From an uncultured Solirubrobacterales bacterium (GTDB lineage Bacteria; Actinomycetota; Thermoleophilia; Solirubrobacterales; Solirubrobacteraceae): a stretch of DNA of 64,000 nucleotides. The position numbers and the translations under genes were made by a program. The stretch lies in assembly GCA_963772075.1 (NCBI GenBank), contig CAVYWG010000014.1, positions 14,950 through 78,949 on the forward strand, written 5' to 3'. The notes under the pieces are model-generated. The model searched no databases, was not told the DNA's origin, and saw only the letters and a program-made list of their open reading frames with translations. Numbering within the stretch: position 1 is the stretch's first letter; each line of letters begins with the position of its first letter. Shown piece after piece: positions 9,727 through 53,836 of the stretch.

Positions 9727-10130
9727 AGCTCGCACTCGACACGAACGCTTACAAGGCCCTCGGCGAAGGCAACCAGCAACTAGCCGAGGAAGCACGCGCG
9801 GCCGAGTCCGTCGGTCTACCGATGATCGTGCTCGGAGAGCTTTGGTTCGGCTTCATGAACGGGACCAAGCTACGGCAGAACGCCGCCACGCTCGAACGCT
9901 TCCTTACAACACCTCGTGTTCGTGTGCTCGAGCTCGACCGCCTGACAACTCGCGTCTTCGGCGAGATCGCAACCCTCCTCCGGCAAGCAGGCATTGCGAT
10001 ACAGCAAAACGATATCTGGATCGCGGCGCTGTGCAAACAACACGGATTCGCTCTCGCAACCCGAGATCGTGGCTTCCAACATGTCCTCGGGCTCGAGGTG
10101 ATCGAGTTCACGGTGCACGTGCCAGGCTAG
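9723..10130 (+). CDS. vapC: PIN-domain toxin, VapC family
   Basis: LDTNAY, VLGEL, NDIWIAA, LATRDRGF - the conserved acidic PIN residues. Confidence 0.92.
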   Translation: MKLALDTNAYKALGEGNQQLAEEARAAESVGLPMIVLGELWFGFMNGTKLRQNAATLERFLTTPRVRVLELDRLTTRVFGEIATLLRQAGIAIQQNDIWIAALCKQHGFALATRDRGFQHVLGLEVIEFTVHVPG

Positions 10131-28133: not shown

Positions 28134-28358
28134 GGCGCCAATCTACCCCGCCCCCGCCCTGGCATTCGTGAAACGCCTGTGAACGTGAGGTGAAAATCGG
28201 TGCCATCTGTGGGTGAATTGTGAATAAATCGTGAGCGTGGTTTACACCGCCCGGTAACAAGGGCAACTTAACGCGTAGCTAATCTGCCCGCACTTGACGT
28301 ATGAGTTTCACCTTGTTGTCGCGCGTTGCGACGTAACGTCTATTCGGAGGTGGTGACT

Positions 28359-31262
28359 GTGGCTGGCTCGGTTCCGATCCGCACTACTGGTACTCGCCGG
28401 AACTCCCGGCGCAGGCGTCTGGGCGCGGTGGCTGCCCTGGTGGCTTTCGTGGCCGTTGTGGGCGTGGCCTCCGCCGCGTTCGGCGGCGTCAACCCGTTCG
28501 CCAGCGAGGAAGTTGGCCAGGTCTACCACGGCGCCACGTTGCTGCCGACGAATCAGTGGATCTCGCCGATCGGCAACCGGATCGAAGACCCGAACGGCCG
28601 GATCGTCTCGAGCACACTCAGCCCGGACGGGCAGTACATGGCGGCGCTGACCTGGAACGAGTTCACGGGCTACCTCACGATCTTCAACCTGAAGACGGGG
28701 AAGATCGTGCAGGAAGAAGGCGCCTATCCCAATACCCTCGATCCCGCGGCCGGCGAACCCGGCGAAGAGGTCGGGGCCGACGGGCCGCTGTACTCGCCGG
28801 ACGGAAAAACGTTGTGGGTCCCGCAGACGGGCGACATCGCCAAGTTCACAGTCGATCCGGAAACCGGCATGGTCTCGGAAAAGGTGATCGTCAAGCTGCC
28901 CTCGGCCGCGAACGGTCCGGCACCGGAATACAGCACCGAAGCGAAACACCCCGGCGAAGCTCTAGCCTCGGGCATGGCGCTCTCACCCGACGCCAGCAAG
29001 CTTTACGTAGCCCTCAACGGTTCCAACACGCTCGGCGTGATCAACACCGCGACCAACGAAGTCGAAAAGGAAATCCCTGTCGGCAACGCGCCGCGCCAGG
29101 TGGTGCTCGACGGCAACACCGCCTACGTCTCCAATGAGGGCGGCCGTCCCGCGCGGCCGGGCGACACCACCAACCTATCCGACGGGACGCCGATCGTCTC
29201 CAGTCCCGTCACGGGCGCAGCCACGACCGGCACGGTGTCAGTCGTCAACCTGACGACGGGTACGCAGGAACAGGAAATCCCCGTGGGGCTGCAGCCGACC
29301 GCGCTCTATCGGAGCGGAGGAGCACTGTTCGTCGCCAACTCCAACGACGACAGCATCTCGGTGATCGACACCGCAACCAACGCGGTCGCGCAGACGACGA
29401 GCACCAACCCGCTTCCGGGCGCCGACGTGGGGAGCTACGCCAACGCGATCACAATGCCCGACCCCAACCACGTGCTTGTGAGCATCGGCCGCGACAACGC
29501 GATCGCCGTCTACAAGTACACGGGCCTCACAAGCTGGAGGCACGGGGGCTTCAATGGATGGCGCGGGCGCCCGACGCAACCGCTCCAGTACAAGGGTCTG
29601 CTGCCGACCGACTGGTATCCGGTCGGAGTGCAGCCCGACCCGGCGCTCGGGAGTGGGGAGATCGTCGTCACCAACGACCGGGGCATCGGCGACCGCGGCC
29701 CGCAGGCGAAGATCTGCAAGGGCACGGAAACCTCTCCGGCTCCGGAATGCGTGAAGGGTTACAACACCTACGACGACACCGGCACGGTGACGACGTTCAA
29801 GCTGCCGGCCGAAGGTGAATTGGCGCAGTACACCAAAACCGTGTTCACCGACAACGACTGGAACAACGTCCCCGCGATCAACGGCGGTGCGGGCGACACC
29901 GTGCCGAATGTGATCCCGCGGAGGAGCGGGGGGCACTCGCCGATCAAGCACATATTCGTGGTCGTCAAAGAGAACCGCACCTACGATCAGGTGTTCGGCG
30001 ACCTGGGCGAGGGCAACGGCGCCCCCGAACTGGCGCAGTTCGGACAGAAGATCACCCCCAACGCGCACGCGCTCGCCAAGCGCTTCGGCGACCTGGATAA
30101 CTTCTACGACGAGGGGACGTTGTCGGCGGACGGGCACAACTGGATCGTGCAGGCCGAGGCCAACGACTATGTCGAAAAGGAGTTCGGAGCGTTCTACCGC
30201 TCCTATCCCGCCGAAGGCGGCGACGCGCTCGCCTACCAGCGCGACGGGTTCCTCTGGAACGCCGCCGAGCGGGCGGGGCAGAACGTCAAGGACTTCGGCG
30301 AGTACAACCGCTACATCACCGGGCCTCCCGGCGCCACCGGCGGCGACTGGAAGGAATGGTACGAAGACTCGCAGATCCTCGAAGGAAAGCAGAGCGGGCC
30401 GCTGCCGATCCCGACCGGCGAATACAAGACCAGCTCCGACATCCCGTCGCTGAACGAAATCACCGACCCCGCCTACCCAAGGTTCGACCTCGAAATTCCC
30501 GACCAGTACCGCTACGACATCTGGAAGGCCGAATTCGAACACGAGGAAGGTGCCAACGCGGTTCCCAGCCTGACACTGATCTGGCTGCCCGACGACCACA
30601 CCGGCGGTGCACCGGACCCCGTGGCCCAGGTGGCCGACAACGACCTCGCGTTCGGGCGGATCGTGGAAACGATCTCCCACAGCAAGGTGTGGAAGGACTC
30701 GGCGATCTTCGGCGTCGAGGACGACACGCAGAACGGCGTCGACCACGTCGACGGGCACCGCGCCCCGGCGTTTGTGATCAGCCCGTACGCGAAGGGTGGG
30801 GTACAGGACGAATACTCAACGCAACTCAACATGGTGCGCACGGTCGAGCAGATCCTGGGGATCCAGCCGATGAACCAGGAGGACTACGCCGCCGAACCGA
30901 TGTACGGGGCGTTCACGGAAGCCCCGAACTTCGAACCGTACACCGCCGCGCCCAACGAAATCCCGCTGACACTCGGCGTCGCAGGCTTCGCCGCGACCGC
31001 GGCGGCGAAGACGGGTGGGCCTACCGAGGGCGCGGTGCCGGCCTCGATGCAGGGCGTGTACAAAGCCTGGACGAGCTGGAGGGGGCATCAGTCCTTCCTT
31101 GGCCGGGACGCCGTACCGGACACAGCCAAGCCGGTGCTGCTCAACCGGTTCGACTGGTACTCCGCGCACGACTGGAAGGTGGCCTACCCGGGCGACCCGA
31201 AGATCTACCTGCCCGACGAAGTGCCCGGCAGGAACCTACCGGCCGCGCTCCTCGGCGGCTGA
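28359..31262 (+). CDS. Secreted YncE/YVTN beta-propeller + alkaline-phosphatase-superfamily phosphoesterase
   Basis: Signal peptide, YVTN-like repeats (LYVALNGSNTLGVINT, AYVSNEG, LFVANSNDDSISVID), KHIFVVVKENRTYDQVFGDL, DGHNW, PDDHT, DHVDGHR. Confidence 0.9.
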   Translation: MAGSVPIRTTGTRRNSRRRRLGAVAALVAFVAVVGVASAAFGGVNPFASEEVGQVYHGATLLPTNQWISPIGNRIEDPNGRIVSSTLSPDGQYMAALTWNEFTGYLTIFNLKTGKIVQEEGAYPNTLDPAAGEPGEEVGADGPLYSPDGKTLWVPQTGDIAKFTVDPETGMVSEKVIVKLPSAANGPAPEYSTEAKHPGEALASGMALSPDASKLYVALNGSNTLGVINTATNEVEKEIPVGNAPRQVVLDGNTAYVSNEGGRPARPGDTTNLSDGTPIVSSPVTGAATTGTVSVVNLTTGTQEQEIPVGLQPTALYRSGGALFVANSNDDSISVIDTATNAVAQTTSTNPLPGADVGSYANAITMPDPNHVLVSIGRDNAIAVYKYTGLTSWRHGGFNGWRGRPTQPLQYKGLLPTDWYPVGVQPDPALGSGEIVVTNDRGIGDRGPQAKICKGTETSPAPECVKGYNTYDDTGTVTTFKLPAEGELAQYTKTVFTDNDWNNVPAINGGAGDTVPNVIPRRSGGHSPIKHIFVVVKENRTYDQVFGDLGEGNGAPELAQFGQKITPNAHALAKRFGDLDNFYDEGTLSADGHNWIVQAEANDYVEKEFGAFYRSYPAEGGDALAYQRDGFLWNAAERAGQNVKDFGEYNRYITGPPGATGGDWKEWYEDSQILEGKQSGPLPIPTGEYKTSSDIPSLNEITDPAYPRFDLEIPDQYRYDIWKAEFEHEEGANAVPSLTLIWLPDDHTGGAPDPVAQVADNDLAFGRIVETISHSKVWKDSAIFGVEDDTQNGVDHVDGHRAPAFVISPYAKGGVQDEYSTQLNMVRTVEQILGIQPMNQEDYAAEPMYGAFTEAPNFEPYTAAPNEIPLTLGVAGFAATAAAKTGGPTEGAVPASMQGVYKAWTSWRGHQSFLGRDAVPDTAKPVLLNRFDWYSAHDWKVAYPGDPKIYLPDEVPGRNLPAALLGG

Positions 31263-31317: not shown

Positions 31318-31417
31318 TGGCGCCCGTGCGGTTGTCCCCCGCGACCGAGTTGTTTCTGCGTTCCCTTGAGCGGGGCCGCTGGGTCCAAGCGGCATGGGTT
31401 AGCATCCAAAGGGAACC

Positions 31418-32201
31418 GTGCTACGCAACGTCGCGCTATGGCTCAGACCGGCAGGGTGGCCGCCGCTGCCCGATGCGGTGCGCCGGCGGACGTGCCTGCT
31501 GGCGTGGGCTGCGATCCTCGCACAGGTGGTGTTCGTCGGCGGGTGGGTGCTCGCCGGTGCTCTCGAACCCCATTACTCGCCGGTTCGCCAGGCCATCAGC
31601 GAACTCGGCCGCGTCGGCGCGACGAACCCCTGGATCTTCACGATTTTCCTCGCTATCCTGGGGGTTGGGCTTCGTCGCGCTCGCGGTCGCGATCGTACCG
31701 GCACTGCGCACGCGGCCGTGGCCGCTGGCGATGCCGTTGTGCTTCGTGCTCGCCGGCGTGTGCGCGATTCTCGTCGGGCAACTGCAAATGGACTGCTCAC
31801 CGATCTTGAGCGCTGTGTGCAAGTCACGCGAAGTCGCGGGCGAGCTCTCCTGGCATCACTACGCGCACGAGTGGTTGACCATCGGCATCTTCGCATCGCT
31901 GCTGCTGACGGGTTTCGCGTTTGCCCGTTCGGCGTGGCCGAGCCGGCTCGCGCGACTGGTGTTGGGCGGCGCGCTCGTGCTCACGGGCGTGTTCATCGTC
32001 ACGTGGTTGCTCAACGACTCGTTCGCTGGCTACTTTGGACTCGAAGAGCGTCTGTGGGCGTTTGTCGCCCAGCTCTGGGCGCTGGTTTGCGCGACGGTGC
32101 TGATCCTCGAGGCGACGCTCCGGCCGGAGGTCCTGCAGGCACACGAGGCGGCCTTGCGGCGTAGTGCTTTGGGCGAGCACGTCGCCGTCGCCTCGTCGTA
32201 G
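31418..32201 (+). pseudogene. DUF998-like membrane protein with frameshift
   Basis: YSPVRQAISELG motif in one frame. A frame change at ~31665 (G-run) leads to the remaining TMs with HHYAH and GLEERL. May be a sequencing error. Confidence 0.7.
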
Positions 32202-32405: not shown

Positions 32406-33791
32406 CTAGAACAGGTCGGCCGCGTTCAACAGGAGCACGTCCTCGCTTGCGGCGCGTCGCTGCAGCGAGGGGGTGAAGCCGCGTCGCGCAAAGATCGCAA
32501 GTCGGGCGTTCGCCGTGCGGCCTTCGGCTGCGTCTCGGCTTGCGAGCAGGGCGTCGAGCGCGTCCTCGCCCACTGCTCGCCGCGACCACTTGCACGACCC
32601 GAACAGCGTGTACTGACGCCGGTCTGCGCATGCGATGTCGATCTCGTGGCGCCCGTCGCGCGACCACCACGATCCGATCGCGTTCGCCGTGCGGGCCTCC
32701 TCGATCTGTGAGTAGCGCGCGAGCCAGTGGCGGCAAACGTCCTCGAAGGCGCGGCCGACGTAGGTGTCGAGGTCGGCTGCGACCTGGTCCCACACGGCAT
32801 CGATCGCCTCGCCCCGGTCCAGTCGGCTGCGGTTGGGGGCGACGCGGCGAAACCAGAACCGGAAGAAGGGGTCGTCGATCTGCCAAAAGCCCCGTCGGCG
32901 ACGAGCGTTGGGCGACACCGGAGTTCGCTCCCGCACATAGCCGAGTGCCGCGAGTCGCTCCAGCACGGTGGCGACGTTGGAGCTCGGCAATTCGAGTAGG
33001 CTGCCGATGTCGGCGTTGCGGGTGCGCCCGGAGGCGATCGCGGCGAGCACGCCGAAGTAGCGTTTCGGGTCGCGAACACCACGCTCCTCCCTCACCAGGG
33101 TCAGCGGCTCTTCGTACAGGGGCGCTCCCTTGCGCAGGATCGCCTCGCATACGACCGACCTCAGCGGGCGTTGACCGGCCCAGAGCTGGTATTGGGGCGT
33201 TCCGCCGATCACCGCATAACGCTCCACCAACTCCTGTGGGGAGCTGCTCGCCGGCGCGAACTCGCGCGCGTCGCGGTAGTCAAGTGGGTCGATTGCCGGG
33301 CGGAAGGTCGCACGGCCGTGTAGCGGCGCGTCACGCGAGAGGAGTCCCTCCATAAAGCTCAGCGCACTGCCGGACAGCACCAGGCAGATCGGCGCCCCGC
33401 TCGCGTCCCAGCCGTCCCAGTGGCGCTGAACGATCGAAGGAAGCGCCGGCTCTGACAGGCATGCGTACTGGAACTCGTCGATCACCACCACCAGCGGCCG
33501 CACGGCGGCCTGCGTGCCGAGAAACTCAAAGGCGGCGTCCCAGGAACCGAAGCTCAGCGGCGGGGTTCCGGGAAGCAACCGAGCAAGCTCCGCCGCGAAG
33601 GCGGCTAGCTGCACTGCGCGTGGCTGCTCGTCTGCCTGATAGCTCACCACTCCCTCGCCTGCGAACGCATGCGCAAGCAGGAACGTCTTGCCGACGCGTC
33701 GCCGACCTCGCAACACAACCAGGCTAGGTGCCGATTCGCGCTGCTCCAGTAGGAGAGCCATCTCCTGCTGGCGATCCACGAGTACTCGCAT
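32406..33791 (-). CDS. Archaeal-type P-loop ATPase with DUF234 / PD-(D/E)XK-like C-terminal domain
   Basis: GRRRVGKT Walker A, VVIDEFQY Walker B, LSGS, GGTPQY, DPFFRFWF, FEDVC, WW..EIDI..GSCKW. Confidence 0.9.
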   Translation of the reverse strand: MRVLVDRQQEMALLLEQRESAPSLVVLRGRRRVGKTFLLAHAFAGEGVVSYQADEQPRAVQLAAFAAELARLLPGTPPLSFGSWDAAFEFLGTQAAVRPLVVVIDEFQYACLSEPALPSIVQRHWDGWDASGAPICLVLSGSALSFMEGLLSRDAPLHGRATFRPAIDPLDYRDAREFAPASSSPQELVERYAVIGGTPQYQLWAGQRPLRSVVCEAILRKGAPLYEEPLTLVREERGVRDPKRYFGVLAAIASGRTRNADIGSLLELPSSNVATVLERLAALGYVRERTPVSPNARRRRGFWQIDDPFFRFWFRRVAPNRSRLDRGEAIDAVWDQVAADLDTYVGRAFEDVCRHWLARYSQIEEARTANAIGSWWSRDGRHEIDIACADRRQYTLFGSCKWSRRAVGEDALDALLASRDAAEGRTANARLAIFARRGFTPSLQRRAASEDVLLLNAADLF

Positions 33792-41608: not shown

Positions 41609-44600
41609 TCAGGCGAATGCCGCCAGCGCCGCGGGCGCGACTACCGGAGTCAGTTCGGCGCAGTGCACCGTCACCAGCAGCGGACGCATGAAGTGCGCTC
41701 CTCCGCAAAGGTGGCGGATGTCAGCCGTGTCGCCGGTGAGGGCGATGGCCGAGGGCAGGGTGCGATCGACGACGTTGGCCTCGGTGGGGGCAGCCCAGTA
41801 AGCCGGAGCGAGGGCGCGGAGGTCGGTGCTGACGATCGCCGCGAGGAATTCAGAGGCCGTTTGAGTGGGGGTGTCGCCTCCAGGGCGATCGGCGACATGG
41901 GGGTCGCCCGCGGTCGAGGCGCCGAGCGGTGTATCGGTGTCGGTGGCCAGCCCGCGGAGGAGTGTCTCGAGGTCGGCGGCGGGGTGCGCCAGCCCCGCAA
42001 CATCGTGAATCGCGACAAGCCGGCCATCGAGATCGAACAGCGGTGCGCCGCGGGCGGGGTGGCCGCCGTCGCACACCACAGCGAACTGCCCTCCGGTGCG
42101 CATCATCACGCCCCAGTTGATCGCCGGGCTTCCCCTGCCAGTGCCGAGGGCGACGATCGCCATGCCGTGGTGGGGCTCAGCGACCGCGGGCGGCTCGATG
42201 TCGGCGAATGCCTCCTCGATGTCGGCGGCGAATTCCAACAGCGCCAGCCCGGTGCCAGCTGGCAGCTTGATCGTTGCGCCTTTTGCGGAGCGCCGGCCGC
42301 GTACGGCCGCCGCGCAGGTGAGCACGATCTGCGACGTCAGCACGACGCCCACCGCGCCGTCGGGCCCAACCGGCAGTACCCGGTGCGCGTACGCCGTCGC
42401 GACCGCGCCCACCTCGGGCGACGGGGCGATCCACGTCGTGGTCGGCTCCAGTGGTCGCAGCCGGCCGTCGGCGTCCACTACCGACGGGGCCAGCTCGTCC
42501 AGTCGGGCGTTGTCGATCGCCTCCAGGAGATCGCCGGCCACCGGGTTTTCATGCAGCCGACGGCCATCGCCGCGCGTGACCGTGTCCTGTAGTGCTCTGA
42601 TAAGCGAATCCAGGTCTCCGGACACCGCGGTGACTGGATCCGGCAGCAGCTCCGGCTTGCTGTCAATGGCCGCGGCATACTCGATCTTCGCCAGTTTCTC
42701 CACGACGTGTGTAGATGCTCCACAGCCACCCCGACCGGAACGCGTGTGCGCGCGCTCGGCCTCCGATCTGCTCAAGGACGCGGCGGTCGGGCTTCGCGAT
42801 CGCGACGGCGAACGCCGCCGGCAGCGTGTCGGTGTCGAGCGCCGGGCCGAGCTCGAGCCCGTCGAGCGGCTCGCCCACCCACGGTCGATGCACGAGCTCG
42901 GAAAGAATTGCGATCCACGTGTCGAGCTCCCCGAGGCGTCGCTGCAGGCGCACGAGGTCGCCCTGTGCCTGCGCCAGCCGCAGCGCGCGGTTGAGGTTGC
43001 GCAGTTCGCGCGCCGCGCGCCGATCGTCGGCGATTCGGGGACGCGCGAGCACACGGCGCGTAACACTCGCCGCGGTTGCCAGCCACAGCAGCGCGATCAG
43101 AGCGCAAGCCACCAGCGCGGCCGGCAGTGGGAGCAGCACACCTGCGGCGACGATTGCCGCAAACGCCGCCGCTGTGCCCAGCGCCACTCCTCGCAACAGC
43201 GTTGCGACAGGGCCACGAGCTCGGCGCCCGAGCAGGAGCAGCAGCCACCGCCGCTTGTGCGGTGCCGGCGCCGCGGGCGGATCGTCGATCGGCTCCGGCG
43301 CCACGTCCTGCAGCGTCTCCACCAGCGTTTGCATGTCCGTCACCGCGCCGGCCACACGCTCGCGAATCTGCTGGAGCAGGGGCATCTCGGTCTCCTCCAG
43401 CGTCGTGTCGGCTGCCCGGGGATCGCTTGCAACACGCGACGGATCGCAGTCACGTATCGGCGCCCCCCGTGTTTGAGCGCCGACCCGTCGAGATAGTCCG
43501 GCAGCCTGGAGCCGTCGACGATGCCCAGCGTGAGCAAGCGCAGATCTCTCCATGTGGCGCTCACGGCGCCATCCTCGATCGTGAGCGGTCCCGCTTTCTC
43601 CACTCGCGCTCGCAGCCGATCGAGCCCGCGCTCCTCCTCCGGCGCCTGGCCCCAATGCAGGATGTGGATGTTGCTGCTAGTGCCCGCCAGCCGCTGGATG
43701 TAATCGACCACCTGGTCATAGATGGCTGCCGTGGCTTCCTCCAACAGCTCTACTGGCTGCTGGGCGGCCCACGCGAGGAAGCGGTCGCGGAGCTCACGCA
43801 GCGCCTCCAGCAGGGTTAGCTGCCGTGGCGGGTCCTCGCGGACCGGCTCGAACGGTCGGCGGTGCAGCGTCGTGCTGTGGTGGTCCATGAACCCATCGGT
43901 GAGCCACGCGATCACCCGCTCGGGGTCCTCCGGTTGCTCGAATTGCTCGGGGTCCGGCTGCGGCCAGCCATCCCGTGCTGTGAACGCGGCCTCGGCCACA
44001 TGGTCGGCGATGTGGCCGAGCTCCACCACGCGCGAGAAGCAGCGCACCACCCGCACGCCGACCGCGAGCGTGCCGGTGCGCTCACCCTGCAGGTATGCGG
44101 TCGGGTCCGCGCGGTTGTCATCCCGCACGACCCACAGGGCCGCGATCGTCGCGGCGGCGTGGGCTGCGTGGCTCACGAAACGCTCCGCGTCGCCCTGCAG
44201 CCGATTGGGCAGGTCCGACCGCGCGCGGTCCTCCGGCGCGACCAGCAGCCCGCTCCATCTTGCCCGGAACATCCACGGCGGGATGGAGGTGGCCGCCGAA
44301 GCCGGTATCACCGCCATCGTGCACGTCAGCGGTGTGGCCTCATCGAAGGCGAGCACTCCCTCGTTGGCGCTCGCCAGAAACGCTGCCACCGCCTCCGGGA
44401 ACGCCTCGGTGACGCTCTCGCCGTCCGCCACCGGGCAGCAGGCGAGGAATCGCGTCGCGCTCCGTTCGACGTGCGCGATGGCAGCGTCGAGCGCGAGCTC
44501 ATCCACCGCGCCGCCGACGATCCGGCGCACCGTGTCGGTGGCCGGGTGGCTTGCCATCCACACGCAGCACGGCTCCAGCAGCCCCACCTCCGACCACTGC

Positions 44601-44659
44601 TGGAGCCTGCGCGCCATGCCCGCCGCCGGCTCGGTGTCGGGGAGCAGCAGGACGTTCAT
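41609..44659 (-). pseudogene. Large membrane-associated hypothetical protein of the tubulin-like operon (about 1000 aa; two frameshifts; degenerate trypsin-like domain)
   Basis: ATG 44659 overlaps the upstream stop (ATGA). High-GC3 reading continues across frame changes at ~43448 and ~42708. Two TMs at ~43050-43200. C-terminal region has VGVVLTSQIVLTCAAAV and GAPLFDLDGRLVAI. Confidence 0.7.
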
Positions 44660-47600
44660 TGCTGTCCGTTGCGGCTCGCGTCGTCCTTGGCGATTGTGGA
44701 TCGCAGACCGGCGATCGCTTCCAGCACCAGCTCGCCGATCTCCCACCACGACTGCGTCGTGAGCACGTTCTCGCGCGTCAGCGCGTGCCCCTCCAGGCGC
44801 GTCCGCCAGCGCTTCTCGATCGCCGACAGCTCTTTGAGCAGCTTTTCCTGGCGCTCCCCGGAGGTGCCCTCCGCGACTTGTGCCGGCTCGCCACCGGCAC
44901 CATTGGCCGAGCTCGGCGCCTGCCCGGATTCGATCCATGTGTCCAGCGTGGTCGCGTCTCCCAGGTCGAGGATCCGCATGTATGCGTCGAGCTCCTCCCA
45001 TTCTCGGCACGCGTAGCGCATCAGCGCGAGCGGCAGCGACTCCAGTACGGGCCCGAGCAGCTCTTCCATGTCCCTCGGCGTGTCCTCGCCGAGGAGGTAC
45101 TCGGGGAAGCAGCAGAGGCCTGCTTGGCGTCCGAACCGACAGCGCGCGGGTGCCGCCGACGGCGTCGGACAGGGTCAGCTGCCCGAGCAGCCGTGCGGCG
45201 AGCCAACCCTTCACGAAGCGCAACTGGCGCTCCGGCGAGAGCGGCACGAACTGCGGCAGCGGACAGGTGCGTCGGTAGGCCGAGAACCGGCCGCGCATCC
45301 CCTCGTCGATGCGCGCATCCCAATCGCGCTGGATTGGCACGAACAGGCCATCGAGCACCACGGGGTGCATCGGCTGGGCGGTGAAGCCGCTGACCTCGAT
45401 CGTGTGGGCGGCGGAGGTCGGGTCGAACAGCTCGGCGACGGCCCCATCCGGGATGCCGGCGGTAAGCAGCGACTGCTCCATGCGCCTGCGCACACGGTGG
45501 CCCTCGGGGATCGGAAGCGTGCTGACGAACAGCTTCGGCGGCTCGGGCGCGGTGCCGTACACACGCATGTGGACCGCCGGGTTGATCCTCGTCAACGGCT
45601 CGGCGCAGCGCAGCGCCCGGTCGAGCGCGTCCGCGAGCTGTTCGGGCCGGTCGGGTGCGCCGGTGATCCACTCGGCGATCGGAAGCCGCAGGCGATCGCT
45701 CAGCGCGCCGGGTCGCTGCTGCGTCCATTCCTGCGCCCGCGCGAGCAGCGTCTCCGCCTCGAGGACGGTGAATGCGAACGCGGCCGTGACGGTGATCCCC
45801 TGGCCGGCACGCCACTTCTGTGGACACGTGATCAGCGTCTGCGAGGCGCTCTCGCGCGAGCGCCATGTGCCGGTCAGGAGCTCTGCCACCGCGACGCTCA
45901 CCGCCTCCCCGACGCCATCTGCGCCGAGCGTCTGCTCGAGCAGTTCATCGACGAGGCCCGGAATCGTGTCGAGTGGCTCGAGCGGACGCTCATTGGGCGT
46001 CGGCAGCAGGCGCGGCGGCAGCGCGCCGGTCGACCAGCTCGCAACCAGCTCGCGGTGATATCTGAGCTCACTCGCGGCCAGCTCCTCCTTCGCCTTGCCG
46101 ACCGTGTGCAGCAGTGGCGTGAGCACCGCGCCGTCCACTTCCTGCAGTAGGTCCGCGGCGAGCTGGTGGTCCTCGGCGTCGAAGCGTAGGAACAGCGCCT
46201 GACAGCCGGCGTCGATCGTCACTTCGAGGACGTGATCGCGGTTGTGGATGAGCCTGTCCGTCGCTATCGAAGCGAGCTCTCGGTGCGCGCTTGCCTCGCG
46301 GTCGTCGGCCTTGGTCACGAGCTGCTCTGTGCGGATGCGACGCAGCTCGCCGGCACGCTCCTTCGCGTGCACGCGCGCGGCCTCGAGCAAGCCAACGGTC
46401 ACGGGGATCCCGTAGCGCGCGACGCTCTGCGCGGTGGCGTTGCGCAGCGTGCCCACGATCGCTTCGCTCCAATTCTGCGCCGCGTTGGCGCGCCCCGCGT
46501 CCTCGATCTGCCGTCGGACTTCGGAGATCTCTTGCTCGATCCTGACCAGCCAGTGGTCGGGGCGGTCCCGCCGGTCGCCTTGCCTGATCTCCCCCTGGAT
46601 CTTCCTGGCGTGCTCTTTGATCTCGCCGCGCAGAAGCTCGCGGTTGCGCAGGCTTCCCAACACTGCCTCATCGCTCAGCCCGGCGGCCTGGATGAACCAG
46701 TCGGTCCGCTCTTCGACGAGCCGGTCGATTGTGGTGTCCTCGCGCTCGCCGGCAACGGCGAGACGGGAGTGCCCGCGCTGCAGCGTCTTGAGCGCCTCCC
46801 GCGCGAGCCGCTCGGAGGCGTACTCCTCGATCACCGCCCCACCGAGGGAGATGTTTGCGTATCCGAGCGAGGAGGCCTGGCGGCTGGTGGCCGTGGGGTC
46901 GACGATGCGGAAGCCCGAGGTGACGGTCGCGCCGCTGCGATTGGTGTCCAGGTGCGCGCGCAGCCCGTTGGAGACCTGCTCGTCCAGCATCATCCGTGCG
47001 ATCGCCTTCGCGGTGGCCTTGATCGTCAGGTGCTGGTGCTCGAAGGCGATCTCGCCGTTGGCGCTGCCGACGAAGAAGTTCGTCGCCGCCGCACGGCGGT
47101 TGGCAATCAGCGTTGAGCCCCCCGTCCGCAGTAGGTCGGTGAGCGCAGTCGGCGCCGGTCCGGTGGCCTCATAGCCGCTCATCATCGTCGAGGTCGTGTA
47201 GAGGGCGTTCGCGCTCACGCCGTCGCGCTCCATCGGCGTGAGGTCGGCGAACACGTCTGGCGTGAAAAGGATCGTTACCAGCTCGTGACGCAGCCACTCG
47301 GATCCCGTCGTGGCCCTGCCGAGCAGCAGCTCGACGACCGGCTGAACGAGTCCGGCGCCGGAGCCGCCGCAGAGCGAGGAGATCACGAACACCCTCGCGC
47401 CCGGCCTGCCGGGAGGGATGACGTTGAGCCGGCGGGAGAGGGCAGTTAGCTGGTCGACTGCCTCCTGGCTTTGCAGCGCGGTGATCTCACGCTGGATCGC
47501 GTCGCCGATGTTCCCGAGCTCCGCGAGCCCGACGACATGGCCGACCTGGGGTCGCTGTCCCGCTCCCAGGAAGGGGGGTGGCAGCTCGACGTCGGGGTCG

Positions 47601-47905
47601 GGCAGGCAGCCGACGAGTCCCGGCAGCGCTTTCGTGTTTTCGGCGAGTTTTTCGAAATAGGTCGGGTATTCGTATGGGTTCCTCGCCAAGCCCACGCGCG
47701 TGCCGGTGTCGCCGAGGCTCCGCGGGACGTCGCCGGTCACGACGTCGGAGTCCTGGGCGATGTCCAGACAGAGCCAGCGCCACCCAGCCGGAATGCCGCT
47801 CGTCCAGCCAAGGCCGCGGAGGTCGCGCTCAAGATACAGGTTGAGATAGCGAACCAACGTCTCGGCGGAGCCGCCGAGGCCGATCACAAGGGTGCGGTTT
47901 AGCAC
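44656..47905 (-). pseudogene. Tubulin/FtsZ-like GTPase-domain protein (Tubulin_2-like), about 1080 aa, one frameshift
   Basis: N-terminal TLVIGLGGS, WLCLDI, GAGQRP.VG and ISSLCGGSGAG tubulin-like signature loop. A frame change at ~45108 leads to the natural C-terminus (FPEYLLGED..MEELLGPVLESLPLAL...GQQ*). Confidence 0.8.
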
Positions 47906-47930
47906 GGTCGTCCTCCGTCGTGGGTAGGGG

Positions 47931-50226
47931 TCAGAGGTCGTTCCAGTCGAGCGATTCGGGTTTGGGGGGCTGCTTGTCGCGGTCGGGGGCCCGGTCGTGG
48001 TTGTCTGCCCGCGCCGGGTGCTCGTCGCCGGGTTCGCCCTCGAAATCGCCCCACTCGCGGGAGCGCAGCGCGTCGCGGGCGGCCGCGAGCAGCCTGGCGC
48101 CGTGGTCGAGCTCCTCCCGCTCGTTGCTGATCAGCAACAACCGGCCGTGCACATCGCCGCTGTCGTCGATCTCGTGGACGGCGAGCAGCCATGTCCCGGA
48201 GAGCTCCAGCGGCACCTCGCAGATCCGGTGCGCGCCGCGGTGCGGCAGCTCCCCCTGGAGTCCGCCGCCGACGAGCTGTGCGAGGCCCGCGGTCGCCTCG
48301 CCATGTGGTGAAGTGAACAGGTGTGGCAGATCCGTGCGGGCACGCAGCGTGAAGCCCTCGTACTCGATCCGGCGGGTGCCCGTGTCGTTGCCGTTGCGGG
48401 TGAGCGGCTGGAAATCGCGGCGGTGCGGAGTGCCCGGATCGGGTGCCAGCGTGACCGTGGCCTGTGGCACGACACGGGCGTCGCATGCGAGTACGCGCAG
48501 CTGCTCGGGCGGGGGGAAGCGCGCACGCACGACTCGCCTCCTGTACTCGATCAAGCCCGCCAGCGCCGCGATCGTCACAAGTCCCCCGCCGATGCCGATG
48601 AGCCACCAGGCAGCCGGGGTTCCGAGCGCCACGGGCCCGCTCAGCGCCAGCACCGTGGACACGGGTTCGATTGGCGCGCCGTAGCCGGAGAAGCCAACTT
48701 CGAGCGCGAGGTCCAGGCGGCCCCCGGGGGCATCCCGTGTGACCGGAACGCTGACGATGAAGGTCCCGTCGCCCACCTCCCGAGCACCAACGGGGTGAGA
48801 CGCGCCCGCGGCACCCACAAGCCGTGCATGCAACCGGGCCGCGCGCGTCAAGCGGCTCGCCTTGACGACCGCGCCGGTGGGGTCGACGAGCTCGACCCCG
48901 ACCTGCGTAGTCGCGCCGCGCACGAGCACCGGCCGGCTGGTGAGGCGGGGGCTGAGGTCGGACTTCAGCAGCAGCGTATACGCCGGGGCCGGCTCGCTTT
49001 CGCCCGCGGGGCTGAAGAACGCAAAGCGCCATCGCCCGCTCCAGCGGTGGCTGGTGCGCTCGAAGTTCGCGTGCATCTCCAACGAGCGCTGCGCGATCCA
49101 GCGCTCGACGATCGCGGTGCCGGCCGTCGTGAGGCGCAGCGGACCGCTCGGCGTGATCGTCGTCGTGGCGCCGGTGGGGTCGGTCAACGCGAGCGCCAGG
49201 CCGGGCAGCGGCGCGCTTGCATCCAGCTCAAAGCCGCTCAGCCCGCGTTCGACGAGAAACGTGCGACTGTCCTCGACGCAGGGCGCGCCGGGGCAGACCG
49301 GCAGCCCGCGTTCCGGTTGTTGCCCGTCCAGCAGGTTGCTGAACACGAGGAACAGGTCGAGGCTGTTGCGCACTTCCACGAAATCGCCGGTGGCGGGCGA
49401 AAGTTGCGATCCGCATGTGCGACCGCCGGCCGCCCCCGTGGTGAGCGCGTGGAGGAAGACGCGATCGGATGCGGGAAACCCCGACGAGGACGACAGCGCG
49501 ACCGTGAACATCAGGATGCCGTCCCCGGCGATCTGGTCCATTAGCCCCCCGGGCTGGCAGAGTGCCTGGCGACCGAACGCTTCTGCGCGGGCGGCTCCGC
49601 CGGGAGCGTCCAGCCGCGCGCCCGGAGCGTAGGGCACGGTCGTGGGCAGCGAGGTCGGCGGCAGCCGCTCGGTGAGCTCATAGCGCCCGTCGGTGACGAA
49701 CAGCACTATCTTGCAGGGTGTCGGCAGGCCGGCCGCGACGATCGCGGCGCTGCGTGCGTTCGAGTGCGTCCTGTGCGGCGGTGAGCGCGAGCACGTAATC
49801 GGTGTCGCGGCCGTGATCGCGATGCGCATAGGCGGCGACGCTGCCCAGCAGCGCGTCCAGCGTGCCGCCGTCGAGCGCTTGCCACTGCGAGGCGGCGGCC
49901 GCCGCTGAGGGTTCGACCGTGCCGGCGAAGCTGCTGAGCAGCACTTCGATATGCGTCGGCCGCTCGGTTTCGCTGCTTTCGGTCAGCCGCTCGAGGCCGA
50001 TCAGCGCTGCGCTGATGCCGTCGACGCGGCGGCCTTCGGGGTCGGTGTAGGCGATGCTGCCCGAGCGGTCGATGTCCGCCACGACGAGCAGCTGGTCGGA
50101 GTGGCGCAGGCAGGCCGTGAGCGTGTGGGCGGCGCCGGGGGGCTCGCTGCCGCTGGCCGGCGCCGCAGTGGCCAGCGCCGCCAACAGGCCCACGATGGCC
50201 AGGGCGAAGCGCGTGCGGGCGCTCAC
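47931..50226 (-). pseudogene. Membrane-anchored secreted vWA-domain protein, one frameshift
   Basis: Signal peptide; MIDAS DIDRSGS...TDY...(frame change ~49760)...KIVLFVTDG; Cys-containing beta-rich ectodomain; TM PAAWWLIGIGGGLVTIAALAGLIEYRRR; cytoplasmic tail ending LDWNDL. Confidence 0.8.
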
Positions 50227-50465
50227 AGCGTGCTCCAGTCATCGAGGGCGATGTCGCGCTGCGCCGCCGCGGTCGCGGACTCCTCGGTGCGCAGCCACAC
50301 GAGCACCCACCCAACCGGTCCGAGCAGTATGCCCAGCGCCAGGCCGCTGATCGCCGAGTAGCCGCGCCTCTGCGAGAGCAACGCGCCGACGCCGCCGAAC
50401 ACGAGCGTCCACGGGATCACAAACAGCGCGCCGATGTCCAACGAGGCGTGCAGTGCGGTCGTCAT
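50223..50465 (-). CDS. Small two-TM membrane protein
   Basis: GGGAGG RBS, ATGA overlap with the upstream gene, GTGA-type overlap with the vWA gene; GYSAISGLALGILLGPVGWVLV. Confidence 0.7.
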   Translation of the reverse strand: MTTALHASLDIGALFVIPWTLVFGGVGALLSQRRGYSAISGLALGILLGPVGWVLVWLRTEESATAAAQRDIALDDWSTL

Positions 50466-51365
50466 CGCTCGCCTCCCGCGCCGTACAGCAACGTTGCCGC
50501 GGCCGCCGTGACCAGGAGCCCTGTAGCGAACACCAGCCACGTGGCCGGCGTCGGGTGTGCGTGCGCGACGTGCGCCGCCGGCGAGCGTCCCGGCGGCCAC
50601 GATCGTGAGTGCGGCGGCGGCGTTTACGAGCCACCCGGCGGCGGCGGCGACCAACGCCCCGAGCTCCGGCAAGCCTCGCAATGCGAGCCCGGCGCCGGCG
50701 ACTATCAGCCACATTGCCGCCAACGCCACGGGGGCGACCCCCGGGAGGCTGTTGCCGCCGATCACCAGCGTCGTGCCGAGCGGTGTTCCTTCCAGCCACG
50801 GCTGCTGGCGCAGTTGCAAGAGCGCGGGGAGCGCGAGCGCAAGCACGACCAGTGCGCCGGCCGTCGGGCGGCCCCGCTCGCGCAGCGCGGCGATCCTCGC
50901 CAGCAGGCTCGCGCGGGCCGGCTCGCTGGCGGCGACGATCGTGCCGAGCGCCGCCCCGAGGGCCAGCCACGCGCCTGGTCCGACTTCGGCGCCGAGCGCC
51001 AGGCGATGCCCGTGCAGCGTGAGCCGGTCACTCGGAAGCACGGACGCCGCGGCGAGCGAGATCGCGATCAGGAGCGCGGCCCCGAATGCGGCCGCCACAC
51101 CCGCGAACGCTGCTACCTCGAGGCCGCGTGTCTGCCCGGCCAGCGCGAGCAGCGCCCCACCAGCGATCGCCCCGCTCGCAAAGCCGATCGCGGTAAGCGC
51201 TATGGGCGCGGCGATCAGGGTGCTGGAGGCGTCGCTGTTTCCGACCTCAACCGAAGTCCAGGTCAGCAGTGTGCTGGCTGCCAGCAGCACTGCGCAGCCA
51301 AGCGTCGTCAGGCAGGCCGCCGACTGGCGCCGATGCTGCCGTAGCTCCCCGTTCCCCACCTTCAT
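50462..51365 (-). pseudogene. Multi-pass membrane protein, frameshift near 3' end
   Basis: About eight hydrophobic segments. At ~50580 the alternative frame gives a final TM (PATWLVFATGLLVTAAAATLLY) and a stop overlapping the next ATG. Confidence 0.65.
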
Positions 51366-51393
51366 AGAGGCACGTATACACGCGCGGTGAAAC

Positions 51394-51447
51394 CCCGCCG
51401 TCACGGCGGGCCGTCAGCCGGCCGTCAGCGTCCGTCAGCCATCGTCC
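51394..51447. promoter_or_regulatory. CCGTCA direct-repeat array in divergent intergenic region
   Basis: CCGTCA at 51398, 51411, 51422, 51432, degenerate TCGTCC at 51442; 8-bp inverted repeat CCCGCCGT-C-ACGGCGGG at 51394-51410. Confidence 0.6.
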
Positions 51448-51478
51448 GGATTTCAGTAGGCTTCGGGAGTTGCGAGTG

Positions 51479-53836
51479 ATGACACAAATCAGAGTTTTAG
51501 GGGAGTGGAGCGTCGTCTGCAACGGCAAGGCCGTCGCGACTGGCCCCAACCAGAGAGCCGTCCTGCACGCGCTCGTGATGAGTCGCGGCGACATCGACCG
51601 CGGTGACCTCAAGGAGGTCCTCCCGAACCGCCCGATGGAGTGGGAGAAAGGGCAGAAGGCGATTCGCAATGCGCTCACCTACTTGCGAAAAGAACTCAAA
51701 CTCGATATTTCCGAAAACGCGAATCCGGTGACGATGGGACCCACCCAGGCCCATGCCAGCATCGACCTGTGGGACTTCTTCGCCCACGTTGAGAGCGAGG
51801 ATTACGCGGCTGCCCGGGCGTTGATCGCCAAGGGGCAGGAACCGCGGCTGCTGGAGACAGATGCCGAACACAACGAGCTTTGGGCAACGACGCTCGAGGA
51901 GTTCGCTGAGGCCAAGCGGAAGGTTTCGGCGGCGTTCGAGTTGAGCTCTGGGCGCCGCCGCTCGATGCTCGACACGCGCGAGCGGCTGCTGAAGCGCAGC
52001 CTCGTGCCCGGCGTCGGCCGGCAGGTCCCGATCAGCGCCGTCCGTGAGCGACTCGAGCCACTCACATTCCCGTGGCGCTGGCTGCGGCCGGAGGCTGGGC
52101 CCGGCGGGAGGCCACTGCCCGGGCGCCTGGCTGAGCTGTTGGCCGCAAGCGACGCTCCGCCGCAACAGCTGATCGTCGTCGGACCGCCGGGGGCGGGCAA
52201 GACGCTCACGGCGATCTTGACGTTCCTGCAGCTCACCGATCGGCTGGAGGGCTCCAATCCGATGCATGGCATGCGTCCGGTGCTCTACGTCGATGCCCAC
52301 ACCGAAGGTGCCCAACGCGACTTCGCCACCGACACCTGGTTCGAGCGCCGTCTGCACGAGATGGACGCCGTCGGTCACGGCCAGCCGGTCGTGATCATGC
52401 CCCACGCGGACGCGTTTCTCTCGCGTGACCAGGAGAAACTCGGGAGGATCCTCAACTGGCGGGTGTTTCGCGATCACGACATCCTGCTGTGCTGCGGCGA
52501 GCAGTTCTACTCAAAGGGTTTGCGCTACGAGGAGTACGGAACGCACGTGATGCAGCTTGAGCCATGGAGTCGCGAGCTGCAGCGTGCCTTCGCGCTCGCG
52601 GTTTTCAACCAAAAGACATGCAGAGCCTTCGAGCGCTGGCGCGACGCGGACGAGACCGGCACACGCGCGAAGCTATGCATGGTGCCTCTGCATCTCGCCC
52701 ATGTCCTGCCGCTGGTCGACGCCAACCGACAGGCGCTCAACAGGATCTCAACTCGCTGGCACCTGTTTGACCAGGTTGCCCGTATGCGTTTGGGCGTTGC
52801 TGGTCATAGCGGCACCGAGGAGGAGTTATTCTGGGAGCTGGCCGCACTTGCCCACCGCTTCTACACGGCCGGTACGCCTGCCGACACCCCGATCGGCTTC
52901 AACCTCGAGGATCTGCGTCAGTACCTGAGAGCCCGCTCGCGCAGGTCCGTTAGGGCGCGGGTCGAGACGATCGTGAATCACACGCTGCTCGTGAACCCAC
53001 AGCCCGGCAGCGACGAGTTGCGCTTCGAGGAGCCATCCTGGGGCTGGTTCTTCCTCGCGCGACACCTCGTCCACACACTTACCTACAGTCCGCAGGAGGC
53101 TCTCAGGGCATTCTCGAAGTTCCTCTCGGCCGATGTCATGGAACTGTGCGAAGAAATCCTGCGGGATGCGCTGGTCCATCACCACGAGCCGATCCTGGAC
53201 GCGCTGCGCTTCGCGCTGTGGGAGGACACCGCGACTGACCTCTCGCCCAGTCGCCGCACGATTGCGCGCGAACAGATCGGCTACCTGCTCGGGGCGATTG
53301 GTGACGGCGGGGTACGCGCGGAGCTGGCGGCGTTGATGGACAGCGACGCCGGCACGTGGGAGCCGGATCCCCTGGTGCGTCGTGGCATCGCCTTCGGCTT
53401 GGCCAATGGCGGCGCCGCGGAGTTTGCCGATCGCTACGTGCAGGTGCTGCGCGACGAGCGCGCACGGGGGGAGGCACACGAGCGCAGCGTCAACATCGGC
53501 TTCTTTTTGAGCTTCCGTGGCGACCAGCCATACGATCACGAGCGGCCCGGCGAGATCGGCGTGCGGCCCGAACCGGTCCGCACCGTCGCCGATCTGGTGC
53601 GCGGGCTCGAGGAGGACAGGCACTGTGGGTCGTGGCGGATCAAGCTCTTCACGCTCGTCGACCTGGCACAACATCCGGCGATCGAGCCGGAGTGCTATGA
53701 GCGTGCGATCGCGCCCTATCGCGAGCGTCTGAACACGATCCTCCAGCGGTTGGAAGCCGATTCGCAGCGAAGCGAGTGGGTCGAGCTCGCCGAATTGCGC
53801 GAGCAGCTCGACGATCAGGGCGCCGTGGCGGCTTAA
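51479..53836 (+). CDS. wHTH/SARP-like N-terminus + STAND(NACHT-like) P-loop NTPase + helical C-terminus
   Basis: IRVLGEWSV..GPNQRAVLHALVM..LPN..AIRNALTYLRKEL resembles the OmpR/SARP wHTH; SIDLWDF resembles the BTAD start; Walker A IVVGPPGAGKT; C+xPL.L motif; LRFEEPSWGWFFLAR; HEAT-like helices. Confidence 0.7.
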   Translation: MTQIRVLGEWSVVCNGKAVATGPNQRAVLHALVMSRGDIDRGDLKEVLPNRPMEWEKGQKAIRNALTYLRKELKLDISENANPVTMGPTQAHASIDLWDFFAHVESEDYAAARALIAKGQEPRLLETDAEHNELWATTLEEFAEAKRKVSAAFELSSGRRRSMLDTRERLLKRSLVPGVGRQVPISAVRERLEPLTFPWRWLRPEAGPGGRPLPGRLAELLAASDAPPQQLIVVGPPGAGKTLTAILTFLQLTDRLEGSNPMHGMRPVLYVDAHTEGAQRDFATDTWFERRLHEMDAVGHGQPVVIMPHADAFLSRDQEKLGRILNWRVFRDHDILLCCGEQFYSKGLRYEEYGTHVMQLEPWSRELQRAFALAVFNQKTCRAFERWRDADETGTRAKLCMVPLHLAHVLPLVDANRQALNRISTRWHLFDQVARMRLGVAGHSGTEEELFWELAALAHRFYTAGTPADTPIGFNLEDLRQYLRARSRRSVRARVETIVNHTLLVNPQPGSDELRFEEPSWGWFFLARHLVHTLTYSPQEALRAFSKFLSADVMELCEEILRDALVHHHEPILDALRFALWEDTATDLSPSRRTIAREQIGYLLGAIGDGGVRAELAALMDSDAGTWEPDPLVRRGIAFGLANGGAAEFADRYVQVLRDERARGEAHERSVNIGFFLSFRGDQPYDHERPGEIGVRPEPVRTVADLVRGLEEDRHCGSWRIKLFTLVDLAQHPAIEPECYERAIAPYRERLNTILQRLEADSQRSEWVELAELREQLDDQGAVAA

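Follow-up and report, generated by a model that had tools for sequence, protein, structure and literature searches.

Which function is served by an operon that combines a tubulin-like GTPase, a vWA protein and several membrane proteins, what does the STAND-type gene facing it contribute, and is the operon intact in the organism that carries it? These questions are raised by positions 41609 to 53836 of a 64,000-nt stretch from an uncultured Solirubrobacterales bacterium (contig CAVYWG010000014.1; G+C ~70%). The whole stretch is called the window in the following. The tubulin-like protein is a member of the Tubulin_2 family (PF13809), which is the FtsZl1 family (PMC9871819). We lean, with moderate confidence, towards the reading that the locus is a functional FtsZl1-vWA membrane module that has been garbled by assembly errors, that it belongs to a rare subclade with a STAND transcription factor of its own, and that its products form a membrane complex switched by this regulator. 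A role in the envelope or as a membrane scaffold is ranked first, and inducible defence is ranked second.

Organization of the Locus

The operon consists of five co-directional minus-strand genes, most of which overlap (41609-51365), and it is arranged head-to-head with the plus-strand gene for a 788-aa protein. When single-base frameshifts are allowed for (see below), the five genes and the facing STAND gene are present as the initial annotation had placed them. The features are as follows, with the basis for each in brackets.

41609-44659, minus strand: gene for a membrane protein of ~1016 aa, here called the C protein (tblastn in three frames; indel edits derived from contigs result in one open reading frame (ORF))
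44656-47905, minus strand: FtsZl1/Tubulin_2 gene, 1082 aa (Pfam PF13809; AlphaFold2 (AF2) and Foldseek; indel at 45112)
47931-50226, minus strand: gene for a type-I membrane protein with a vWA domain, 764 aa after repair (alignment, PDB profile matches, topology)
50223-50465, minus strand: gene for a small protein with two transmembrane (TM) segments, 80 aa (tblastn to 82-aa and 91-aa genes of the loci L001 and L002)
50462-51365, minus strand: gene for a polytopic membrane protein, ~300 aa, with ~8 TM or hydrophobic segments (tblastn, three-frame translation)
51398-51439, minus strand: direct-repeat array in the divergent intergenic region (pattern search, shuffles, clade comparison)
51470-53836, plus strand: gene for the STAND protein, 788 aa, uninterrupted (N-terminal profile, Pfam domains of relatives, clade homologues)

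The proposed translational coupling is seen at three junctions. The ATG of the 80-aa gene overlaps the stop of the ~300-aa gene (ATGA, 50462-50465), its own stop overlaps the vWA start (GTGA, 50223-50226), and a further ATGA is found at 44656-44659. The tubulin-like gene is preceded by a GGAGG ribosome-binding site.

Conserved Core and Earlier Description

When a single genome from each species was scanned, the tubulin-like protein was found to have 296 relatives, almost all of them from Actinomycetota. The taxa include Microbacteriaceae, Cellulomonadaceae, Georgenia, Kutzneria, Acidimicrobiia and the streamlined Nanopelagicaceae (genomes of ~1.5 Mb). Iterative hidden Markov model (HMM) searches covered 86 loci. 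A vWA-like gene is located immediately upstream of the tubulin-like gene in 79 of these and a C-like gene immediately downstream in 85, on the same strand, as far as the contigs extend. The order vWA, tubulin-like, C is fixed, as is the strand, in ~80 of the 86 loci, across Actinomycetota. The conserved core is a three-gene unit, vWA-FtsZl1-C. The genes for the ~300-aa and the ~80-aa membrane proteins are confined to the window clade and its nearest outgroups. Homologues of the 80-aa protein are encoded in the window, L001-L003 and L086, and also in L088, where the gene is located downstream of the C gene. In ~20 loci, a different small multi-TM gene overlaps the vWA start. The window clade is only 24-31% identical to the relatives derived from genomes.

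FtsZl1 operons were described by Makarova and Koonin (Biol Direct 2010, 5:33; PMC2875224), who proposed that they encode a membrane-remodeling machine. In their account, the operons code for MIDAS-bearing vWA proteins, often secreted or membrane-bound, and for lineage-specific membrane proteins (MIDAS, metal ion-dependent adhesion site). A cassette from Xylanimonas cellulosilytica consists of Xcel_1380 (84 aa), Xcel_1379 (vWA, 918 aa), Xcel_1378 (FtsZl1, 1118 aa) and Xcel_1377 (1027 aa); one from Corynebacterium glutamicum R, given in the supplementary table, consists of cgR_2628, cgR_2627 and cgR_2626 plus a 933-aa protein (PMC2875224). The core arrangement is thus not newly recognized, because this table lists the same cassette. 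The match is one of order and size (small protein, vWA protein of ~900 aa, FtsZl1 of ~1100 aa, protein of ~1000 aa), with related genera being among our ~80 loci. A further similarity to the operons in that account is that their vWA proteins have an intact MIDAS and either a signal peptide or a TM segment, and that membrane partners are encoded alongside. Compared to the cassettes as described in 2010 (PMC2875224), the window clade adds the polytopic protein of ~300 aa, a divergently encoded SARP-NACHT-HEAT regulator with a putative repeat operator, and a degenerate HtrA-like domain on the last protein. As judged from the sequences, what appears to be new here is the dedicated regulator, its conserved candidate operator and the dead HtrA-like domain.

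In 16 genome loci (e.g. L042 16639-17532 and L018 16108-17358; many from Microbacteriaceae and Cellulomonadaceae), a gene for a membrane-anchored protein directly follows the C gene. This protein has the motif set DVDRNGCDTRND...VQIDHVV...ANDP.NL and, by eye, resembles a secreted nuclease of the DUF1524/HNH (His-Me-finger) type.

Proteins Encoded in the Operon

The domain calls of the initial annotation (tubulin/FtsZ fold, vWA domain with MIDAS, trypsin-like fold and DNA-binding STAND NTPase) were all borne out, the trypsin-like fold with qualifications that are given below.

For the tubulin-like protein, Pfam family PF13809 matches aa 6-373 with E 2.4e-22 (80.1 bits, the cut-off being 27; the match spans all 356 positions of the profile). 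The window protein has the T1 loop VIGLGGSA and the T4 loop SSLCGGSGAG. Residues G11, G12 and S13 as well as S178, G181, G182, S183 and G184 are invariant among 19 aligned homologues. The N-terminal fold was modeled confidently by AF2 for the homologue P0003 (pLDDT 87.8, pTM 0.79), and the top 50 Foldseek matches in PDB are exclusively FtsZ, CetZ and tubulin (~360-410 aligned columns, prob ~1.0, best E 4e-5). The protein is alike to these in fold, with CetZ2 (4b45) being the best match, and in the conserved glycine-rich T1 and T4 loops. It differs in several respects: the identity is ~12-18%, the root-mean-square deviation (rmsd) is high and TMt is only 0.35-0.46. It is encoded together with membrane partners and not, as in that comparison, with division genes. 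In place of FtsZ_C or Tubulin_C, it has a C-terminal extension of ~700 aa (a helical stalk and alpha/beta domains). The overall architecture is a GTPase core (~aa 1-380), followed by three helices of ~50 aa and the C-terminal alpha/beta domains; there is no TM segment. The C-terminal 450 aa have no Pfam match, and a profile of the tubulin-like family had no meaningful sequence-level match in PDB. Within the tubulin/FtsZ superfamily, no branch is more divergent than FtsZl1. In a database of 5.8 billion clusters, only 21 related clusters were found, and the window clade is very rare, with ~10 proteins. No RNA runs covering the tubulin-like gene were listed.

The vWA protein starts with a signal peptide, followed by the vWA domain and by beta-rich (Ig-like) domains; a single TM segment (aa 541-559) then leads to a cytoplasmic tail of 205 aa. 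In the window, the MIDAS motif reads DIDRSGS. D42, S44, S46, T128 and D165 are invariant among 38 aligned orthologues, which is a complete MIDAS (DxSxS...T...D). A profile of the family matched almost only vWA domains in PDB (TRAP 4hql, E 4.5e-5; ITIH4, alpha2delta-1, MIC2 and factor B). Pfam alone is silent or below threshold on this protein, and the cytoplasmic tail has no Pfam match.

The C protein begins with an alpha/beta domain that has conserved PEDR and DGS motifs, continues with a TM hairpin (~aa 485-530) and a coiled coil, and ends in an HtrA-like (S1C) domain. It is devoid of a signal peptide, and its two adjacent TM helices have basic residues on both sides. Because of this two-helix hairpin and the flanking positive charges, both large domains are predicted to be cytoplasmic. 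The AF2 model is of moderate quality (pLDDT 73.7), and it rests on a shallow alignment, as a profile search for further C-protein homologues added only one sequence. In Foldseek, the C-terminal domain matches HtrA1, DegQ and MucD (prob 1.0, TMt 0.65-0.72, rmsd 3-4 A). It shares the chymotrypsin-like double beta-barrel with HtrA/DegP (S1C) proteases and with the inactive S1C sensor domain of the anti-sigma factor RsgI9. In contrast to HtrA/DegP, the domain of the window clade lacks all three catalytic residues and is not accompanied by a PDZ domain; it follows a TM hairpin and is predicted to face the cytoplasm. Substitutions have removed the triad both in the window and in five clade members: His is replaced by Ala, Ser or Thr, Asp by Gly, Arg or Pro, and Ser by Arg, Val, Thr, Ala or Pro. 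The Pfam match to Trypsin_2 is sub-threshold only (E ~1e-3). The two nearest outgroup loci L006 (from a Solirubrobacterales metagenome-assembled genome) and L088 have strong matches (E 1e-24 to 1e-27) and an intact His-Asp-Ser triad. The coordinates of these loci are:

L088, 13010-21347: region of the C protein with a catalytically intact Trypsin_2 domain
L006, 13419-16748: C protein with a catalytically intact Trypsin_2 domain

The HtrA-like domain is absent from most of the wider C-protein family. The locus documents the transition from protease to pseudoprotease within one system. The trypsin-like fold in a TM protein of ~1000 aa was thus called correctly; an active protease is not retained, given the lost triad, nor is an ectodomain, given the hairpin topology. 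We conclude from the residues and the predicted topology that the HtrA-like domain is, in all likelihood, neither a protease nor an ectodomain in this clade. The N-terminal 450 aa of the C protein have no Pfam match, and a profile of its N-terminal 700 aa had no meaningful match in PDB. A second degenerate tubulin or a vWA domain at the N-terminus (as in a BtubA/B-like heterodimer) was considered and rejected (hhalign probability <1%).

In L088, the C gene is followed by a 94-aa gene resembling that of the 80-aa protein (sm82-like), by a gene for a 1035-aa TPR protein and by one for a CorA-like protein (PADLOC CorA, E 1e-39). Upstream are genes for a NACHT protein and for a pentapeptide-repeat protein.

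Taken together, the predicted topology is that the vWA domain is outside, the GTPase is inside and the two large domains of the hairpin protein are cytoplasmic.

The Divergent Regulator

The 788-aa protein starts with an OmpR/SARP-type winged helix and a BTAD-like helical region (~aa 1-225), followed by a NACHT-type P-loop NTPase (Walker A GPPGAGKT) and C-terminal HEAT-like repeats. G241, G243, K244 and D314 (Walker A and B) are invariant in the family. The start codon is uncertain (TTG 51470, GTG 51476 or ATG 51479). The window protein has no Pfam match, and a profile of the full regulator had no meaningful match in PDB. A profile of the N-terminal ~225 residues, built from full-length clade members, matched the SARP domain of AfsR (8hvr, E 4.8e-4) and EmbR (2fez, E 3.3e-3), followed by OmpR-family DNA-binding domains.

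An exhaustive HMMER search of 1.84 billion representatives found 157 relatives of the regulator. When 58 of the relatives were analyzed with Pfam, NACHT was assigned to 17, HEAT_2 to 5 and BTAD to 3; the more distant ones have at their N-terminus Trypsin_2 (in 17), a protein kinase, PNP_UDP_1 or DUF4062. Based on the domains of the relatives and on the N-terminal profile matches, the 788-aa protein is a NACHT-HEAT STAND with a SARP-like module at the "effector" position. Its homology to Pfam-recognized relatives (E 1e-30 to 1e-44) argues for its NACHT and HEAT membership, while the assignment of the N-terminus as a SARP-type winged helix-turn-helix (wHTH) plus BTAD is weak but consistent. The initial call of a wHTH-STAND NTPase is upheld by both lines of evidence.

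Homologues of the regulator with 51-58% identity are encoded in L001, L002, L086 and L087, adjacent to the operon and divergent from it. This arrangement is found in all five independent loci of the window clade (window, L001, L002/L003, L086, L087), which differ in their outer flanks. Co-occurrence of the genes in other genomes is thereby seen at two levels, for the regulator in this clade and for the three-gene order in ~80 loci. Among the FtsZl1 loci, the regulator was found only in the window clade. A metagenome scan with the regulator alignment resulted in a single locus, which was short and uninformative.

The protein resembles AfsR-type large SARPs in having an N-terminal wHTH with a BTAD-like region, a central P-loop STAND and C-terminal helical repeats, and in having helically phased direct repeats beside its gene, as expected of SARP operators. 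In contrast to AfsR-type SARPs, its NTPase is NACHT-like rather than NB-ARC, its repeats are HEAT-like rather than TPR, and its presumed target is a membrane/cytoskeletal operon and not an antibiotic cluster.

A Direct-Repeat Array as Candidate Operator

The shared promoter region contains three copies of CCGTCAGC (plus strand) at 51411, 51422 and 51432; a fourth, degenerate copy (CCGTCAC) occupies 51398-51404. Read on the strand of the operon, the motif is (C)TGACGG, and its copies are spaced by 10-13 nt, which is about one helical turn. The triple repeat pattern is unique in the 64-kb window and did not occur in any of 100 shuffles. In the four other clade loci, 3-4 copies of a T[GT]ACG[GC] core are found in the same position, with the same spacing of 10-13 nt and reading toward the operon; L086 and L087 have the array in this form, while it is looser in L002 and L001. 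In the window, L086 and L087, the strict pattern is confined to this position, and it has 0 matches in 1.65 Mb of other loci.

SARP-type winged helices bind helically phased direct repeats. We propose that the array is a candidate operator of the SARP-type regulator. As the phased repeats match the SARP binding mode, the 788-aa protein may be a transcription factor that is gated by a ligand and acts on this promoter region.

A 7-nt inverted repeat (CCCGCCG-TCA-CGGCGGG, window 51394-51410) overlaps the degenerate fourth copy and is positioned between the array and the first operon gene.

Proposed Mechanism

In the mechanism that we favor, the STAND protein would sense a ligand via its HEAT region and would oligomerize on ATP. 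It would then bind to the repeat array and switch the operon on, as AfsR-type SARPs do. The operon products may form a membrane complex, with the vWA ectodomain binding a metal-dependent ligand in the cell envelope, while the vWA tail and the hairpin protein may tether and organize FtsZl1 at the cytoplasmic side of the membrane. There, FtsZl1 could assemble in a GTP-dependent manner and thereby reshape or reinforce the membrane or envelope, the role proposed by Makarova and Koonin in their treatment of these operons (PMC2875224). The dead protease domain might act as a binding module.

The locus defines a strictly conserved three-protein core with testable topologies. One clade seems to have placed the FtsZl1 module under a dedicated STAND factor, presumably ligand-sensing, with a recognizable candidate operator. 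This regulator is an experimental handle, as its inducing signal would reveal when the machine works.

Several points weigh against the favored reading. A full-text literature search found no experimental study of FtsZl1, of the Xcel- or cgR-type locus tags or of a defence system combining tubulin-like and vWA proteins, and the computational description of FtsZl1 is by now sixteen years old. In agreement with the initial annotation, no experimentally characterized system was thus found that matches the locus; the arrangement itself cannot count as unrecognized, having been cataloged in the 2010 supplementary table (PMC2875224). One paper used the signal sequence of NCgl2629 for secretion; from gene numbering, this is probably the vWA orthologue of C. 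glutamicum. Makarova and Koonin state, in their discussion of FtsZl1, that the T6-H7 elements and the T7 loop, which are needed for canonical polymer-activated GTP hydrolysis, are not identifiable, and filament formation by FtsZl1 is uncertain because the T6-H7 elements were not identified (PMC2875224). The repeat array could serve autoregulation only. A paralogue of the regulator with 43% identity (L090 8193-12346) is found without a tubulin operon. The family is thus modular, and the connection between regulator and FtsZl1 operon is specific to the clade. In two clade loci, L001 and L002, the regulator gene overlaps ptuA (see below), which hints at a conflict-system rather than a housekeeping context. 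The fifth frameshift site (near 50571-50575) is covered by no independent public contig.

Is the Operon a Defence System?

The initial annotation had proposed trans-envelope sensing coupled to a cytoplasmic GTPase scaffold, with an anti-phage role. The membrane-spanning architecture fits our predictions (vWA domain out, GTPase in), while the anti-phage role did not find direct support: the operon has no PADLOC matches, a search of viral contigs gave no relatives, and the flanks code for transporters and redox enzymes. Circumstantial signs of a conflict-system context are present, namely the Septu genes beside the regulator in L001 and L002 and the NACHT module, which is shared with effector-bearing STANDs.

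The corresponding alternative is an inducible anti-phage or abortive-infection system. The NACHT-HEAT sensor would detect a phage component and turn the operon on, and the FtsZl1/vWA complex would block infection or kill the cell. We consider this rather unlikely, although several observations speak for it. The relatives of the regulator share its NACHT-HEAT module, but their N-terminal domain is Trypsin_2 (in 17 of the 58), a protein kinase, PNP_UDP_1 or DUF4062, all of which are typical effectors of immune STANDs. In this, the protein is akin to antiviral STANDs (Avs and bacterial NACHT proteins), whose module is homologous, but it differs from them in having a DNA-binding domain in the effector position and in lacking a PADLOC match. 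A Septu pair follows the regulator gene in L001 (1014-4093, minus strand) and L002 (983-4071, minus strand), with 4-nt overlaps, and is missing from the window, L086 and L087. It scores with E 2.6e-202 for PtuA (with an N-terminal PtuB/HNH-like region) and E 1e-71 for PtuB in PADLOC. The locus of the L090 paralogue holds genes for ThiF plus JAB and for SLFN_AlbA_2, L088 has the TPR and CorA-like PADLOC matches downstream of the operon, and the window clade is very rare (see above for each).

Other observations argue against a role in defence. Neither the window ORFs nor the intact operon orthologues of L001 have a match in PADLOC (PADLOC-DB 2.0), and this search is sound because the Septu genes adjacent in L001 score strongly. 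No NCBIfam match was obtained for any of the window ORFs. The window flanks do not constitute a defence island but code for a MacB-type ABC transporter, an MFS transporter, NhaA-DsbA, MMPL and redox enzymes. The 143 flanking proteins analyzed came from 16 diverse loci, and strong matches to specific defence models were scattered and limited to a handful of them; this is a rough count, and several of the matched models are broad (ATPase/helicase-type). The core is widespread over actinobacterial genera, including the streamlined Nanopelagicaceae. The evolution of actinobacterial FtsZl1 is mainly vertical, according to the 2010 analysis of this family (PMC2875224). FtsZl1 relatives were not found in viral contigs.

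It is tempting to speculate that, in an immune-type STAND sensor, the effector has been exchanged for a SARP DNA-binding domain, with which the sensor switches on a trans-envelope, tubulin-based effector (FtsZl1, vWA and pseudoprotease anchor) against phage or in response to envelope attack. We regard this reading as doubtful. If true, this would be the first bacterial NLR-like pathway to have a cytoskeletal GTPase as its effector arm.

Is the Regulator Merely a Neighbor?

The 788-aa STAND protein might regulate only itself or other genes, the operon being constitutive or controlled elsewhere. The paralogue in L090 is relevant here, as it has a similar repeat array but no tubulin operon. Its gene is preceded by four direct repeats of GTAAGC (9892-9930), which face the gene for a 484-aa membrane protein of no recognized family, encoded divergently. 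Genes for ThiF plus Prok-JAB and for SLFN_AlbA_2 are nearby. These findings suggest that regulators of this family are portable switches, used with different cargo operons. That the regulator is merely a neighbor would also be consistent with its translational coupling to the Septu genes in L001 and L002 and with the ~75 of 86 FtsZl1 loci that are devoid of such a regulator. The arrangement in the window clade argues otherwise. The regulator is adjacent and divergent in five of five loci despite 44-58% identity and differing outer flanks, and the repeat motif always reads toward the operon, 30-100 nt from its first gene. We therefore consider it improbable that the two are unrelated, and we retain the reading that the regulator switches the FtsZl1-vWA module.

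Frameshifts: Assembly Error or Decay?

In the raw window, four of the five operon genes are broken by 1-nt indels. When intact homologues were compared by tblastn, the frame was seen to change near 49765 (vWA), near 45110 (tubulin-like gene) and near 43450 and 42680 (C gene). A fifth is located in the tail of the ~300-aa gene, near 50571-50575, where another frame encodes the final 37 aa, which end at the stop at 50462-50464 (three-frame translation compared to L001 and L002). Because of these frameshifts, the 1521-aa ORF (which starts with the tubulin-like N-terminus) and the 393-aa ORF in the mechanical list are artefacts; the list also has several fragments that overlap. In a frame plot of G+C at third codon positions (GC3), the coding periodicity switches frames without gaps and is fully kept in each shifted frame.

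For comparison, we used independent short-read (Logan) contigs of soil-metagenome runs from several studies, mostly at least 99% identical to the window. The indels of the window are absent from these contigs at 42709 (X2), 43449 (X1 and X2), 45112 (X1) and 49761 (X1, X2 and X8). As X8 comes from another study, the indel at 49761 is missing in contigs of at least two studies. The four sites indicated by contigs coincide with those inferred independently from protein homology. When the four edits are applied, unbroken genes of 1016, 1082 and 764 codons result, compared to 1003-1018, 1092-1100 and 742-776 aa for intact homologues.

An indel of the same kind is found outside of the operon. An extra base at window position 31657 splits the gene for a DUF998 membrane protein (~31403-32197, plus strand). 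This base is absent from the contigs X1, X2 and X3, and its removal results in a full-length DUF998 protein (Pfam E 7e-28 over the whole profile). It is the only such indel in the neighboring 17.6 kb. As the indels are missing in the contigs, including one outside of the operon, the window assembly contains scattered 1-nt consensus errors. The window frameshifts are most probably assembly errors, and the operon is most probably intact in the organism. Apparent pseudogenes in long metagenome contigs can be consensus errors, and independent public reads can reveal them.

Decay has to be weighed against this. The frameshifts are, after all, carried by the window itself, the operon, with 4-5 indels per 10 kb, looks more affected than the adjoining 17.6 kb with their single indel, and the compared contigs are from close but not identical strains, with single-nucleotide polymorphisms about every 0.5 kb. 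The difference in indel density is, however, not significant (Poisson p ~0.1). The four testable indels are all missing in independent assemblies with at least 99% identity, and the unrelated DUF998 gene, broken in the same way, is intact elsewhere. The frameshifts are not accompanied by stop codons, deletions or excess substitutions, and GC3 periodicity is kept. The ratio of 4-5 indels to ~20 substitutions is typical of consensus error and not of neutral decay. That the operon is a decaying relic, truly pseudogenized by four or five frameshifts and functionless in this strain, is therefore very improbable.

In several public genome records, the vWA, tubulin-like or C gene is also split into two or three adjacent frames (L032 7170-8581, L064 9193-12218, L083 13429-16120 and L085 7250-8699), so that frameshifts in these long GC-rich genes, whether real or artefactual, are not unique to the window.

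Other Genes in the Window

Two further genes of the window deserve mention. A secreted protein of 978 aa (28326-31262, plus strand) has a YNCE-like beta-propeller signal and an N-terminal phosphoesterase motif of the phospholipase C type. A protein with ATPase_2 and DUF234 domains is encoded at 32406-33791 (minus strand).

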